DNA of 63,990 bases, filler included, from an uncultured Acidimicrobiia bacterium (GTDB taxonomy: Bacteria > Actinomycetota > Acidimicrobiia > Spongiisociales > JAOTWH01), in the NCBI GenBank assembly GCA_964347285.1. It is 3 parts of 3 records of this genome, joined end to end, with 100 filler letters (N's around TTAATTAATTAA, not from the genome) between each part and the next. Parts side by side here need not be neighbours in the genome. Positions count along the whole stretch, not along the records: positions 1 to 26,982 come from CAYFYE010000024.1; 2 more parts are not named here. One strand, given 5' to 3'. Each line of letters begins with the position of its first letter. Position 1 is the stretch's first letter. Of the stretch, positions 21,948 through 54,050 are shown one piece after another. The translations under genes and the position numbers were made by a program. The notes under the pieces were generated by a model. The model saw only the letters and a program-made list of their open reading frames with translations. It did no database searches and was not told where the DNA came from.

Positions 21948-22409
21948 ATGACGCTTCGAGAATGGCTGCTCTTCACTCACATCCTCGCCGCCGTGGCCTG
22001 GGTGGGGGGATCGATCATCCTCCAGTTCTTCGCATTTCGGGTCAATCGTTCACGTGATCCGAAGCGGACCGTTGATTTCGTCGACTACGCCGACCTGGCC
22101 GGCCGGGTCTTCAACGTGGCCGGCATCGTGGTGGCCGCCGCCGGGATCTGGATGGTCATCGACATCGAGGCGTACGACTTCGATCAGGCCTGGATCATCT
22201 ACGCCCTCGCCGTCGTGGGCGCCTCGGCGTTGCTGGGGATGTTCTTCCACAGCCCCAACACCAAGCGAATCCTCGCCGTTGCGGCCGAACGCGGTGCCGA
22301 AGATCCCGAAATCGGTCTAGGGCTTCGCCGGATCGTCCTGGTGGCCCAGATCGAACTGGCGCTCCTGGTGCTGGTGGTCTACGTGATGGTCTTCAAACCG
22401 GGGGGGTGA
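21948..22409 (+). CDS. DUF2269-like 4-TM membrane protein
   Basis: LFTHILAAVAWVGG N-terminus, VYVMVFKPG C-terminus. Confidence 0.8.
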   Translation: MTLREWLLFTHILAAVAWVGGSIILQFFAFRVNRSRDPKRTVDFVDYADLAGRVFNVAGIVVAAAGIWMVIDIEAYDFDQAWIIYALAVVGASALLGMFFHSPNTKRILAVAAERGAEDPEIGLGLRRIVLVAQIELALLVLVVYVMVFKPGG

Positions 22410-22448
22410 GGGGGGACCGCGTCGAACCCGGGCCGACGACCCGGTTCG

Positions 22449-22503
22449 AAAAAGAGGAACCCCGAGGGAGCCTCGGCCGAAGCCTTGGCCCTCTCGGGGT
22501 TCC
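22449..22503 (-). terminator. Intrinsic-terminator-like 3' end of ncRNA A
   Basis: GGAACCCCGAG...CUCGGGGUUCC stem followed by UCUUUUU. Confidence 0.7.
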
Positions 22504-22799
22504 AGTCGAAGCAACCTTTCGGCTGCTCCGATCCCTCCAGGCCGAAGCCCTTTGGGCGTGGCCCCGTCGGTTTTCAGCCAGTCGAGCCCGAAGACCCTCC
22601 CGGCCGGAACCCCTTGCAGGGACGACCCGGCGGGGCCGCTCCGAGGACCCTTGCGAATCCCCAGAGGTTTTGCTCCACCTCGGTTACGGTTGACCCGAAG
22701 GCCCCGTCCGGCCCCCTTTCGAGAGCTTTAGATGGAGCGCCTCCGGTGAGCCTTTCGACTCTTCCGGGGGCCTTCCGACCCAGTTGCCTGAGCCGAAGT
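22449..22799 (-). ncRNA. Candidate large structured ncRNA A (~350 nt, ten tetraloop-capped hairpins)
   Basis: Promoter upstream and terminal hairpin plus U-tract. Hairpin loops 5' to 3': GCAA, GAAA, GAAA, UUCG, GCAA, GCAA, UUCG, UUCG, GAAA, UUCG. Many G-U pairs form only on this strand. No credible ORF. Confidence 0.8.
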
Positions 22800-22805
22800 G
22801 GAATG

Positions 22806-22834
22806 AATGTACGCCTTCCCCCGCCAATCGTCAA
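22806..22834 (-). promoter_or_regulatory. SigA-type promoter of ncRNA A
   Basis: TTGACG (22834-22829), 17 bp spacer, TACATT (22811-22806). Confidence 0.75.
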
Positions 22835-22851
22835 GCCGAACCCGTATCTAG

Positions 22852-22879
22852 ATTTCGCGTCTCAACAGGACTTTTCGCG
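22852..22879. promoter_or_regulatory. Two TTTCGCG boxes upstream of the ncRNA A promoter
   Basis: ATTTCGCG 22852-22859 and TTTTCGCG 22872-22879. Confidence 0.5.
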
Positions 22880-23340
22880 GGGCCCCGGAACGGGAGGAGC
22901 TCCCCCTCTCACCCACACCTCTCGCCTCACCTCCGCCGTCGACCGACTCGCCACTCGTCACCGCCCCGTCGCCGCCCGGCCCTCTGGTTCCAGGCCACCG
23001 GGCGAGCGCGAGCCGGACGTCGCCGGCCTGCTTCGGCCGAGACCGGATCCGCCGCCGAGGCGGGGCCGGCCGCCCGAGCACGCGAGACGGCTTTCGCCGA
23101 GGGAAGCGGACGTACGGTGGGAGNNNNNNNNNNNNNNNNNNNNNNNNNNNNNNNNNNNNNNNNNNNNNNNNNNNNNNNNNNNNNNNNNNNNNNNNNNNNN
23201 NNNNNNNNNNNNNNNNNNNNNNNGCCGCCCGAGCACGCGAGACGGCTTTCGCCGAGGGAAGCGGACGTACGGTGGGAGGAGCGGGTCGACGACGAGTGGA
23301 ATCACCCTCCGGGCCGGCCGGGAACCGGCTCCGACCGCAC

Positions 23341-23556
23341 AAGAGAGGAACCCCGAGGGAGCCTCAGCCGAAGCCTTGGCCCTCTCGGGGTTCCAGTCGA
23401 AGCAACCTTTCGGCTGCTTCGATCCCTTCGGGCCGAAGCCCGTCGGGCGTGGCCCCGTCGGTTGGACCTAGTGAGCCCGAAGACCCTCTGGGCCGTCCCC
23501 GGTTAAGGGGTACCCGGCGGAGCCGCCTCCTCAGACCTCTCGGCCCTTGGAGGAAG
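23341..23556 (-). ncRNA. Candidate structured ncRNA B (~215 nt), shorter paralog of ncRNA A
   Basis: 23344-23463 matches 22453-22572 with 6 mismatches in 120 nt (counted by eye), and changes in helices keep pairing. It has its own promoter and terminal hairpin. Confidence 0.78.
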
Positions 23557-23560
23557 CAAG

Positions 23561-23589
23561 ACAGTAGGCGTTACCCCCCGGGACGTCAA
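23561..23589 (-). promoter_or_regulatory. SigA-type promoter of ncRNA B
   Basis: TTGACG (23589-23584), 17 bp spacer, TACTGT (23566-23561). Confidence 0.72.
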
Positions 23590-23606
23590 CCTGCAGTGAG
23601 GGTTTG

Positions 23607-23682
23607 TTTTCGCGCTCTCAACGATGGTTTTCGCGGCTCCCGCCCATACATTTTCGCGATCCTACCAAGCAGCGTTTTCGCG
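23607..23682. repeat. Four direct repeats of TTTTCGCG (putative regulator binding array)
   Basis: Copies start at 23607, 23628, 23651 and 23675 (spacing 21/23/24 bp). Confidence 0.7.
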
Positions 23683-23709
23683 CTTTGCGGCAGGCCAGAA
23701 CTACACGCG

Positions 23710-23731
23710 TGTCACTTGATTCGCGTATCAT
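23710..23731 (+). promoter_or_regulatory. PafBC/RecA-NDp-like promoter TGTCAC-N10-TATCAT
   Basis: Same geometry as mycobacterial TGTCGG-N10-TAnnnT; 7 bp before the GTG of the nuclease gene. Confidence 0.55.
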
Positions 23732-23738
23732 CTGGGCC

Positions 23739-24551
23739 GTGCCGGAGACGACCATCCTCGACCGCCTCTCCCCCAGCCGGGCCTCCGACTTCAAGCAGTG
23801 CCCCCAGCTGTTCAAGTTCCGGGCCATCGACCGGCTGGACGAGCCGCCCACCATCCATCAGGCCCGGGGCACCACTGCCCACCTGGCGCTGCAGCGGCTG
23901 TTCGACCTGCCGGCCGAAACGCGCACCCCCGACGCCCTCTACGACCTCTTTCGGCAAGCGTGGGTGGAGGTGCGCGCCGAAGAGTACGCCGACCTGTTCG
24001 CCTCGACCGAGGAGGAGCGCGCCTGGGGCCTCGAGTCGCTCGAGCTCCTTGCCAACTATTTCTCTCTCGAGGATCCGGCCGCCGTCGAACCGATCGAGCG
24101 CGAACTCGACATGGTCGAGGAACTCGATGGGGTCACGATCCGGGGCATTCTCGATCGGATGGAGGAGAACGACGAAGGCGAGCTGATCATCATCGACTAC
24201 AAAACGGGCAAGGCCCCTCCGGAACGGTTCGCCCTGCCGGCCTTCTTCGCTCTCAAGATCTACGCCCTGCTCATCCGGCGACGTACCGGGCGGACTCCGG
24301 CAGAACTCAGGCTCCTCTACCTCAACGGACCGGAGATGTATCGATTGTCCGTCAACGGCAACCAGCTGGACGCCATGCACCGCCAGCTGGTGGCGCTGTG
24401 GGATGCCATCGGTCGGGCCATCGGGCGCGACCACTTTCCCCCGCGGGTCAGCAAGCTCTGCGACTACTGCGCTTTTCGCGAGTTGTGCCCGGCCTGGGAG
24501 ATGAGCGCCGACGGCCTACCCGTTCTCGCCGGGGCAGGAACGGGGCCCTAG
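23739..24551 (+). CDS. RecB-family / Cas4-like PD-(D/E)XK exonuclease with probable Fe-S cluster
   Basis: LSPSRASDFKQCP, RGILDR, IIDYKTG, CDYCAFRELCP (four-Cys staple). Confidence 0.88.
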   Translation: MPETTILDRLSPSRASDFKQCPQLFKFRAIDRLDEPPTIHQARGTTAHLALQRLFDLPAETRTPDALYDLFRQAWVEVRAEEYADLFASTEEERAWGLESLELLANYFSLEDPAAVEPIERELDMVEELDGVTIRGILDRMEENDEGELIIIDYKTGKAPPERFALPAFFALKIYALLIRRRTGRTPAELRLLYLNGPEMYRLSVNGNQLDAMHRQLVALWDAIGRAIGRDHFPPRVSKLCDYCAFRELCPAWEMSADGLPVLAGAGTGP

Positions 24552-26809: not shown

Positions 26810-26982
26810 ATGGCCACAGGCGATAACCCCCCGGAGCTGTACACGATCGGTCACGGCAGCCGCTCCTTTGCCGAAGTCCAGCAGCACCTCGAATCGCACC
26901 ATGTTCGAACGATCATCGATGTCCGCTCGACGCCGTACTCGGCCCATGCCCCCGACTTCAGCCGTGAGGCCCTGGCCGAGGC
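26810..26982 (+). CDS. DUF488 family protein, truncated at contig end
   Basis: LYTIGHGSRS...IIDVRSTPYS motif. Confidence 0.75.
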
Positions 26983-27082
26983 NNNNNNNNNNNNNNNNNN
27001 NNNNNNNNNNNNNNNNNNNNNNNNNNTTAATTAATTAANNNNNNNNNNNNNNNNNNNNNNNNNNNNNNNNNNNNNNNNNNNN
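26983..27082. other. Artificial contig-join linker
   Basis: N44-TTAATTAATTAA-N44 (stops in all frames); same design recurs at 53951-54050. Confidence 0.95.
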
Positions 27083-34145: not shown

Positions 34146-35405
34146 TCAGGGATGGGGCCAGGCCGGCTCGACCGGTGCTTCGGGCCCGGCTCTCACGACG
34201 AGGGCGCGGTCGATTTGGCGGGCCTCGGCGAGGCCGGCCAGTGCCGCCAGGGTCAGCAGCACCCCGCCTGCCAACAAGACCTGCTGCACACCAAAGGCGG
34301 CCGCCAGGGGGGCCACGAACAGGAGTGGGAGCAGTTCGCCTCCCTGGCTGTGCAGCTCCAGCACGCCGGAGATCCGCCCATACATGCCCTCGGGAGAGGC
34401 CAGGTGGACGAGGGAACGGAGAATCGGTGCCAGCGCACCGAGGATCAGCCCCCAGACCACCGCCCCGGTCAGCACCACGGCCAGGTTGCCGGTCCCCACG
34501 TAGAGGACGACCCCCGCCCCGTTGAGGGCCACGATGACCCCCAGGCCGCGTGCCGACGTGGCTTCATCGGGCAGCCGGGGCACGCTGAGAGCCCCGGCGA
34601 TCAGGCCCAGGCCGAACACGGCGTTGACCCATCCGAGCACCTCCGGGCTTTCGGCGCCGACGACATCGCGAAAGAACAGCGGTTCGAGGGCGCCGAAGGC
34701 ACCGAACGTGAGGAAGAGGGCCGTACCCATGAGGATGTAGAAGCGGAGCGCCCGGGTGCGGTAGGTGTAGCCGAGGCCGCCGAGGGCCTCCCGCCATGCG
34801 CTCCTTCCGCCGGGGGCTTCTACCGGCCGCACCTCGACGCCGGCGACGAGGGCGATCGCCACCAGCGAGGTAGCCGCATCGAAGACGAACACCCAGTCGA
34901 CCGAACCCACTCGCTCGATGACCGCCCCCAGAGCGGTCCCGGCGGTGAGGGAGGCCATCCCGGCCGTCTCCATGGAAACGTTGATGCGGCGGATCTCTCC
35001 CTCGTCGGAGGCGAGAAATGGGGTGAACGCCCCCACCGCAGTCAGGATGGGAGCACCGGCCAGACCCAAGAACCCGGCAGCTCCTATGAGCTGGGTCATC
35101 GAATTGGTGGCGGCCATGATCAGGGTGGCAGGCACGAAGGCCACCTCGGCCCACATCAGCACCCTCCTGGGGTCGAAGCGATCGACGAGGACCCCCGAGG
35201 CGACGGTGCCGATGACCGACGCCACGCCCAGAGCGCCCATCATCGCCGCCAGCTCCCCGGCAGTGGCGTCGAAGGTGAACGCCGCCTTGCCCCACATGCC
35301 GACGAAAAACGCAGCAAACGCTCCGCTCCGGGAAATGAAGCGGGCCAAGACGACCCGACGGACGTTGGGATCACGCAACACGGTGGGGGCCACATTCTGG
35401 CTCAC
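34146..35405 (-). CDS. MFS transporter
   Basis: 12-TM pattern, GVLVDRFDPRR motif A. Confidence 0.88.
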   Translation of the reverse strand: MSQNVAPTVLRDPNVRRVVLARFISRSGAFAAFFVGMWGKAAFTFDATAGELAAMMGALGVASVIGTVASGVLVDRFDPRRVLMWAEVAFVPATLIMAATNSMTQLIGAAGFLGLAGAPILTAVGAFTPFLASDEGEIRRINVSMETAGMASLTAGTALGAVIERVGSVDWVFVFDAATSLVAIALVAGVEVRPVEAPGGRSAWREALGGLGYTYRTRALRFYILMGTALFLTFGAFGALEPLFFRDVVGAESPEVLGWVNAVFGLGLIAGALSVPRLPDEATSARGLGVIVALNGAGVVLYVGTGNLAVVLTGAVVWGLILGALAPILRSLVHLASPEGMYGRISGVLELHSQGGELLPLLFVAPLAAAFGVQQVLLAGGVLLTLAALAGLAEARQIDRALVVRAGPEAPVEPAWPHP

Positions 35406-53950: not shown

Positions 53951-54050
53951 NNNNNNNNNNNNNNNNNNNNNNNNNNNNNNNNNNNNNNNNNNNNTTAATT
54001 AATTAANNNNNNNNNNNNNNNNNNNNNNNNNNNNNNNNNNNNNNNNNNNN
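53951..54050. other. Artificial contig-join linker
   Basis: N44-TTAATTAATTAA-N44. Confidence 0.95.

Follow-up and report, generated by a model that had tools for sequence, protein, structure and literature searches.

Within the 63,990-nt stretch of Acidimicrobiia DNA analysed here (the window), we found two copies, A and B, of a heavily folded sequence that is likely non-coding and probably gives rise to an abundant RNA. Comparative analysis suggests that the copies belong to a class of RNA whose core is unusually small, whose length varies tenfold and whose promoter box is shared with nrdJ. The literature searched holds no description of the RNA or of the box; supplements (e.g. the Ms1 candidate lists of PMC9130861) and subscription journals could hold one. 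The irreducible core, newly recognised here, is predicted to be the terminal hairpin of ~50 nt together with a CGCGAA box that precedes the -35 element by 25 bp. Relatives range from ~55 to 750 nt, yet appear to share one end hairpin and, in most cases, the promoter box as well.

The genome measures 2.63 Mb at 67% GC and is 90% complete. Both related units lie on the minus strand between a DUF2269 gene and a PD-(D/E)XK nuclease gene (Table 1), and from predicted start to tail copy B is 219 nt and copy A 355 nt long. Compared with shuffles, minus-strand folding gave z = -5.0 for copy B and z = -6.6 for copy A, and the plus strand of copy B gave z = -3.05. The convergent gene facing the 3' end of copy A argues against a cis leader at this locus. 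Across the units, the next downstream gene had the same orientation in 47 cases and the opposite one in 17, with no such gene in 13, a count that is confounded by shadow frames and leaves room for read-through or leader roles at some loci.

Table 1. Features of the two-copy locus in positions of the window; RNA ends and helices are predicted.
Feature	Position	Strand	Description and basis
DUF2269 membrane protein gene	21951..22409	+	Convergent with 3' end of copy A; PF10027
Copy A, predicted RNA of ~350 nt	22446..22800	-	Fold
A P5 and U-rich tail	22448..22503	-	P5 22503-22456; covariance model, 78.9 bits
A P1-P4	22506..22666	-	P1 22666-22639, P2 22637-22560, P3 22556-22533, P4 22531-22506
A-only 5' extension	22672..22797	-	Alignment and fold
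A extension, GCAA hairpin	22797-22774	-	
A extension, P1-like hairpin	22771-22739	-	
A extension, second three-way junction	22738-22672	-	
Copy A promoter-like site	22806..22879	-	Boxes 22879 and 22859; -35 TTGACG 22834-22829; -10 TACATT 22811-22806
Scaffold artefact in spacer	23069..23278	.	55 nt written twice (23069-23123 = 23224-23278) around 100 N
Copy B, predicted RNA of ~215 nt	23338..23555	-	Fold
B pyrimidine tail after P5	23346-23338	-	Sequence
B P5, terminal hairpin, universal core	23347..23394	-	Covariance model, 73.1 bits
B P4, GAAA hairpin	23397..23422	-	Fold and covariation
B P3, UUCG hairpin with purine internal loop	23424..23447	-	Fold and covariation
B P2, three-way junction with CCCC/GGGG arm and UUCG arm	23451..23524	-	Fold and covariation
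B P1, GAGA-tetraloop hairpin with 2x2 purine loop	23526..23553	-	Fold
Copy B promoter-like site	23561..23589	-	-35 TTGACG 23589-23584, 17 bp, -10 TACTGT 23566-23561
Four CGCGAAAA boxes upstream of copy B	23607..23682	-	Starts 23682, 23658, 23635, 23614
PD-(D/E)XK (RecB/Cas4-like) nuclease gene	23739..24551	+	Head-to-head with copy B; PF12705, E 1e-37
A versus B change in P5	22475/23366	-	G-C to G.U
A versus B change in P4	22528/23419	-	G.U to A-U
A versus B change in P3	22539/23430	-	G.U to G-C
A versus B change in P3	22551/23442	-	A.G to C-G
A versus B changes in P3 internal loop	22553/23444 and 22537/23428	-	Purine swaps

The spacer between the copies contains a gap (23124-23223) with identical 55-nt sequences on either side. 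One contig from run X1, which may be the source sample of the assembly and hence not independent, joins 23068 to 23224 and closes it. The gap is a scaffold overlap within the spacer, outside both units, and the true A-B spacing is 736 nt, not 891. Depth was 6.8 for an A-specific contig (22498-22939), 7.0 for a B-specific one (23465-23906) and 6.5-7.7 for the flanking genes. Mis-assembly of strain variants was ruled out by the gap-closing contig together with the single-copy depth of both copies, so both came through the gap-spanning check named in the first-pass annotation. Independent support for the arrangement came from G002/G007 of the same family, where three tandem units lie in the same order. 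The spacer itself (22881-23337, ~300 nt without the gap) is GC-rich and foldable, with no tetraloop enrichment. Further N gaps of the window lie at 26983-27082 and 53951-54050, and contig C24, on which both units lie, ends at 26982.

That annotation, made from this DNA alone, had described the two copies as a long and a short isoform under selection for structure. Its observations agreed with our alignments and folds: 6 of 120 positions differ between 23344-23463 and 22453-22572, four of them in or extending helices and two as purine swaps in a loop. Further 5', GGCCCCG of one copy and GGCUCCG of the other both stand opposite CGGGGCC, the GGGUC-UUCG-GGCUC arm is retained in both, and the GCAA hairpin is replaced by a GAGA hairpin, as described. 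Copy B indeed lacks the ~130-nt 5' domain of copy A, which is longer by 136 nt, and has its own TTGACG-N17-TACTGT site (23589 to 23561). No difference among the six is two-sided. When six changes with the same spectrum were placed at random, all pairs survived in 4% of 200,000 trials (P=0.04), so the six changes alone are weak to modest evidence of selection on structure.

The interpretation drawn from these observations held in part. The two copies are real, each has its own promoter-like site, and covariation among homologs points to selected structure, but they are paralogous genes rather than isoforms. The core does lie at the 3' end, as had been proposed, but it is far below the shared ~190 nt, the universal part being the last ~50-nt hairpin. 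As to the tandem long-and-short pairs expected in relatives, the shorter copy came first in 29 of 45 related, non-independent pairs; this order is common but no rule, since the longer copy came first in 11 pairs and 5 were of similar length.

Sequence comparison also suggested how the two copies arose. The 5' extension of copy A aligns to P1 and P2 of copy B with a score of 44, which none of 300 shuffles attained (best shuffle 42), indicating that it is a duplicated P1+P2 module plus one hairpin and that length grows by module duplication. In P1, identities were 22/33 between this genome's B and the B of a relative, 25/30 between the corresponding A copies, and 12/32 between A and B of this genome. 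Within the genome, P4 was identical at 26/27 and P5 at 50/51 positions; between genomes the values were 19-23/27 and 44-46/51. In this comparison with one relative, P1 groups by ortholog whereas P4 and P5 group by genome, suggesting an old duplication whose 3' 120 nt were likely homogenised; the 95% identity of this segment is thus likely the product of gene conversion of an old duplicate.

Further evidence for the fold came from homologs. Two-sided changes were seen at 30 of 51 consensus pairs when 20 B-type units of relatives were aligned; 93.5% of cells were paired, and pairing fell to 33-60% in slid controls of the same alignment. P5 consists of a basal stem, an A.C mismatch, a G-C pair, an invariant G.U pair, a purine loop and UUCG. 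Its alignment has 41 rows (46 pattern matches minus 6 near-duplicates plus one), and 10 of 19 pairs showed two-sided changes. The score was attained by 0 of 500 shuffles, a count whose significance is overstated because the rows are related, and the G.U pair (columns 16-39) was present in 41/41 rows. Of the 1154 hairpin loops counted in 143 non-redundant units, 897 were GNRA or YNCG, vs 17 of 380 in shuffles of 60 units; 466 were GNRA, including the P1 loop of at least 114 units, and the A/B locus is the genome's densest tetraloop-hairpin spot. Internal loops in these units were mostly symmetric and 87% purine. The longest unpaired run had a median of 5 nt, which leaves no seed for base pairing. 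The P5 signature recurred weakly inside the scaffold (37 observed vs 18.5 expected; 33/143 units), so a multivalent sponge of repeated P5-like sites was unsupported. In many homologs (L004-L030) the P5 tail reads UUUCUCGCG or UUUUCCGCG, which nearly matches the promoter box in reverse complement. A CGCG-like word is present in 98/143 units; copies A and B lack this feature.

Each copy is predicted to have its own promoter and terminator, with an upstream box common to both, the arrangement by which sibling sRNAs are recognised. The copy B boxes are 21-24 bp apart, the last one 25 bp upstream of -35. The copy A site gave the genome's top score on the family-derived promoter matrix and was the only one listed in a sigma-70 scan (1 found; shuffles 0.0), and the copy B site scored 17.2 bits on the same matrix. 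The boxed TTGACG-N17-TAnnnT pattern occurred twice in the window and 0 times in 100 shuffles. Among 155 promoters, CGCGAA was found 25 bp before -35 in 146 and 45-46 bp before -35 in 128, and GCGAAA was present in 153 of the 155 upstream regions vs 5.7 in shuffles. These positions fit either an activator or alpha-CTD as reader of the box.

The strict boxed pattern was rare, with 1-3 occurrences per genome in four of five near-complete genomes. The box fronts nrdJ in this genome (two boxes), in G031 and in family f16, and other boxed sites precede dnaB (G165), lexA (G364), a 16S rRNA gene (G380) and tRNA genes (G440). A looser boxed pattern, whose control was also matched often in some families, was found in 115/301 genomes across the phylum. 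The strict box is missing from certain homologs (family f47; G071, G109, G103). In this genome the 16S upstream region showed no box, which led us to reject an rRNA-type promoter; two flagged tRNA upstream regions show the box at other positions. In the nrdJ upstream region (contig C7, ~34900-35165, plus strand) the two boxes read CGCGAAA and stand 20 bp from each other; a second TTGACG site and an NrdR-box-like word are also present.

The DNA search gave matches in 43/61 genomes of the order (this genome and one unpublished included), and the P5 model matched 38/39 same-order genomes at E <= 3e-8; 32 of the 38 had at least two P5 matches, mostly tandem copies, and this genome has two. The matching stretches numbered 114, and among the 80 listed with titles nearly all were Acidimicrobiia or Actinomycetota assemblies, five being labelled Acidobacteriota and one 'bacterium'. 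A broader model at E <= 0.001 matched 77/151 class genomes and 16/151 phylum genomes (this genome included), and many other Acidimicrobiia families gave no match at this threshold. Most of 20 weak matches inspected had promoter, hairpins and P5. Several weak matches of model R1 outside the order (L170, L176, L177, L178) resemble ordinary terminators and were dropped. Unit length was 120-756 nt in 169 promoter-bearing units, which were retained from 222 unique units by a good promoter score on the family matrix. At some loci (L026 in G031, L046, L100) two units lie on opposite strands. Viral contigs and plasmids gave 0 matches, and the metagenome matches of units are contigs of at least 1 kb, which carry no information on transcription. 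The family appears to span at least three class-level lineages.

The smallest forms were found in families f16 and f42 and in G320. The f16 genomes (1.0-1.1 Mb, 32-34% GC) are likely Ca. Actinomarinales, an assignment based on size and GC as given in PMC7771536, whose accessible text reports a median intergenic spacer of 2-3 bp for that group. The boxed pattern was present in 39/41 f16 genomes with 1-7 sites each, and the reversed-pattern control gave 0-1. Of 46 sites at 30 f16 loci, 29 satisfied a strict hairpin test and several others were variants or cut by the locus edge; five distinct boxed sites lead into nrdJ. The f16 unit is 88 nt long and has two hairpins. The loop of P1 is large and A-rich; the terminal hairpin is shortened, and its mismatch is followed by G-C and G.U in 15/15 rows. 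In the unit as a whole, 5/23 pairs covary. In f42 the boxed pattern was found in 21/21 genomes (18/18 minus three unpublished ones), where it fronts lone hairpins of 55-60 nt with a U-run. These are of two types: model R2 matched 12/12 type I hairpins (E 9e-6 to 0.02) and 1/15 of type II, and the latter may form a sister RNA family. Type II hairpins (L431, L433, L434, L437 and other f42 loci) are often followed by a conserved ribosome-site-like stretch of the next gene. G320 has P5 alone. The membership of the f16 and f42 units appears less sure than that of units within the order, as it combines low model scores (19-32 bits) with the promoter box.

Comparison with known RNAs gave no assignment. 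No Rfam 15 family (raiA, OLE, 6C and others) reached its gathering score in the window; the best match by E-value had 26.1 bits against 191, and the minimal hairpins gave 0 matches. Divergent SRP RNA, RNase P RNA and tmRNA were rejected, with canonical genes elsewhere (SRP on C53, RNase P on C18, tmRNA on C3) and none in the window. CsrB/CsrC and RsmX/Y/Z are strings of short hairpins of variable length, with sibling copies and an activator box upstream of the promoter. The family likewise has hairpin strings, variable length, sibling copies and an upstream box, but its loops are GNRA/UUCG and its conserved element is one terminal hairpin. A sponge of this type was rejected, since GGA was found in 21 loops of 143 units and CsrA (PF02599) was not found in this 90%-complete genome; a Y RNA was rejected in the same way, the Ro60/TROVE partner (PF05731) not being found in it. 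The sarcin-ricin loop motif, of which the 23S copy was observed, is an AGUA/GAA bulged-G element next to a GNRA loop. A mimic of it was rejected with the motif in 2/2198 tetraloop contexts; a sarcin-ricin-like loop is present in 11/12 type I hairpins of f42, where, however, the stem above which it sits has 3 bp.

Several described RNAs offer partial likenesses. OLE is a Firmicutes RNA of ~600 nt with a fixed, ornate structure; its likeness to the family is a precedent for protein docking, as the small protein OapB docks on a GNRA hairpin and helix of this large bacterial RNA (PMC7936274, accessible text). The raiA motif RNA, which is large and structured, has been reported from several classes that include Acidimicrobiia (PMC10861870, accessible text), whereas the family is a hairpin string with a small core that reaches no Rfam threshold. 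Yfr103 of marine picocyanobacteria, by its description in the available part of PMC5069720, is analogous in having paralogs of an abundant structured RNA in streamlined bacteria, but it belongs to another phylum and is ~290-328 nt long.

The family has no seed region and has one universal hairpin with non-canonical pairs, so we read it best as an abundant RNA recognised by a protein: the copies would be abundant, stable RNAs, separately transcribed, that bind, titrate or carry a protein via P5, a proposal that we hold to be evenly balanced between right and wrong. At the level of function, we infer that the CGCGAA boxes at ~-60 and ~-81 would be read by an activator or by RNA polymerase itself, giving a high output tied to nrdJ and other growth genes with the same box. 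P5 would be the transcript end and also the recognition element, its partner reading the basal stem, the 1x1 or 2x2 mismatch, the G-C and G.U pairs and the purine-rich loop. The upstream GNRA/UUCG hairpins may be an optional scaffold, grown by module duplication, that likely adds stability or extra weak sites. Dose would be set by copy number, with the 3' ends kept alike by gene conversion. The RNA is kept in bacteria with 1-Mb genomes, suggesting that its job is probably an important one. A more specific proposal, which is tentative and which we think has the smaller chance of being correct, is that of an undescribed housekeeping RNA class of deep-branching Actinomycetota. Its ~50-nt hairpin, expressed from a boxed promoter of its own in step with ribonucleotide reductase, would be needed enough for 1-Mb ocean genomes to retain several copies and could lengthen more than tenfold through added tetraloop hairpins. 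By titrating a core factor that serves transcription or the supply of DNA precursors, it would couple growth to replication in a novel way.

Widespread bacterial RNAs with strong covariation and no function assigned are rare and have often proved to serve core processes, and in this case multiple copies persist in genomes shorn of almost all spare DNA. The 50-nt hairpin core could be synthesised directly and serve as bait straight away. The RNA and nrdJ form a small, conserved regulon marked by the CGCGAA box, which in other lineages also takes in dnaB, lexA, rRNA and tRNA. An RNA of the abundance that the promoter implies would be expected to give a marked unassigned signal in marine, sediment and soil metatranscriptomes.

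The RNA might instead be a functional stand-in for 6S or Ms1 RNA, storing or tuning RNA polymerase through binding to the core enzyme or holoenzyme, which we consider unlikely. It resembles Ms1 (RF02566; MTS2823, scr3559) and 6S (RF00013) as a stand-alone structured Actinomycetota RNA with a very strong promoter-like site of housekeeping type and a 3' hairpin, and the f16 P1 has a large A-rich symmetric bubble. It differs from them in its other upstream element, its multiple copies and its tenfold size range. The 6S model gave 0 matches at E <= 10 in this genome and none in 11 Acidimicrobiia and 10 f42 genomes. The best match of the Ms1 model in this genome had 13.3 bits against a cut-off of 162 and lay elsewhere, and 0/11 Acidimicrobiia and 0/10 f42 genomes of the phylum sample matched it. 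These absences would suit a stand-in, but 6S and P5 matches occur together in five f47 genomes and in G232 and G255. Strict complementarity with 6S, one or the other, fails in f47, and identity with 6S was rejected on the missing model match here and on these seven genomes. A lone 55-nt hairpin is also far smaller than 6S (~180 nt) or Ms1 (~300 nt). Ms1 is described in PMC9130861 as a long, centrally bubbled hairpin with a short hairpin at each of the 5' and 3' ends, flanked by genes for an HAD-IB hydrolase and an oxidoreductase-type protein; the accessible part of that paper leaves Acidimicrobiia unmentioned. Copies A and B have no long hairpin with a central bubble, and the neighbours of family units encode PD-(D/E)XK nuclease, DUF2269, MFS, HMGL-like and UvrD proteins, the Ms1 flanking genes being absent beside them. 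With no model match either, identity with Ms1 was rejected. Model R1 gave no score on the 3' ends of five Ms1 genes and at best 4.8 bits over an Ms1 gene.

Action at the level of DNA or transcription, in which promoter and terminator titrate the box activator, insulate neighbours or supply supercoiling while the RNA merely folds fast and terminates, seems improbable to us. The box is the most position-fixed feature, with up to four copies at B, the f42 unit is a promoter plus one terminator-like hairpin, and the number of upstream hairpins varies freely, all of which would fit such action. Against it, the P5 mismatch, invariant G.U and purine loop are kept across 33% to 70% GC, beyond the needs of termination, and strand-specific GNRA/UUCG loops fill up to 750 nt.

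Some large bacterial RNAs are reported to build oligomers or cages, and an architectural RNA that forms such assemblies by docking its GNRA loops and purine internal loops into helices is about equally improbable. The abundance of GNRA loops would suit it, and the symmetric purine loops could donate A-minor contacts. However, the 11-nt GAAA receptor was found in 0/143 units, the loops are unable to kiss by base pairing, and the minimal members are one or two hairpins.

That the RNA acts as partner or decoy of the neighbouring PD-(D/E)XK nuclease (or UvrD) in DNA repair has, in our judgement, little chance of being right. A P5 match lies within ~2 kb of the nuclease gene in 37/38 same-order genomes (35 head-to-head, compared by hand), the G065 unit is directly upstream of a nuclease ortholog (41% identity), and UvrD is next in several other-order loci. 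Outside the order, however, the link was found in 1/11 genomes inspected, which suggests that the adjacency is synteny and led us to reject an obligate tie. The f16 genomes have both nuclease gene and RNA, but apart; nothing was found upstream of the nuclease gene in 7 f16 and 7 other-order genomes; the gene has a conserved promoter motif of its own (55/60), and it is present in lineages without a P5 match. The tandem and sometimes dispersed copies, the gene conversion and the f16 pairs around cargo genes might suggest that the units are not genes but mobile or selfish repeats of MITE/REP type. This reading is largely refuted and very improbable, since this genome has only two copies, the locus is fixed across the order, no viral contig or plasmid matched, and the units are kept in streamlined genomes.

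Some further observations concern the surroundings of the units. The paired 88-nt units of f16 (L469-L498) lie 0.2-3 kb apart, often around one or two cargo genes, and could mark the ends at which small, variable cassettes recombine. TGTCAC-N10-TATCAT at 23710-23741 (plus strand) immediately precedes the GTG start codon of the nuclease gene, so placed that the mRNA would be nearly leaderless. The motif TGTCNN-N10-TAnnnT recurs in 55/60 homologous nuclease upstream regions and resembles the DNA-damage promoter of the PafBC/RecA-NDp type. The PafBC pathway is described in PMC8223512 (accessible text).

A third boxed promoter-like site of this genome (C37:497-650, plus strand; L363) is followed by a single hairpin of ~85 nt and is repeated at the end of contig C80. 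The hairpin has no match in Rfam or to model R2 and is possibly another small RNA of the same regulon; a cluster of DnaA-box-like words lies before the site. Boxed promoters in two genomes (L461, L462) front another conserved structured sequence, on which model R2 gives no score. By eye, boxes were also seen upstream of a WhiB-like gene, a likely lipoprotein gene and a likely secreted protein gene, at C47:6135 (+), C43:7253 (-) and C87:671-692 (+).
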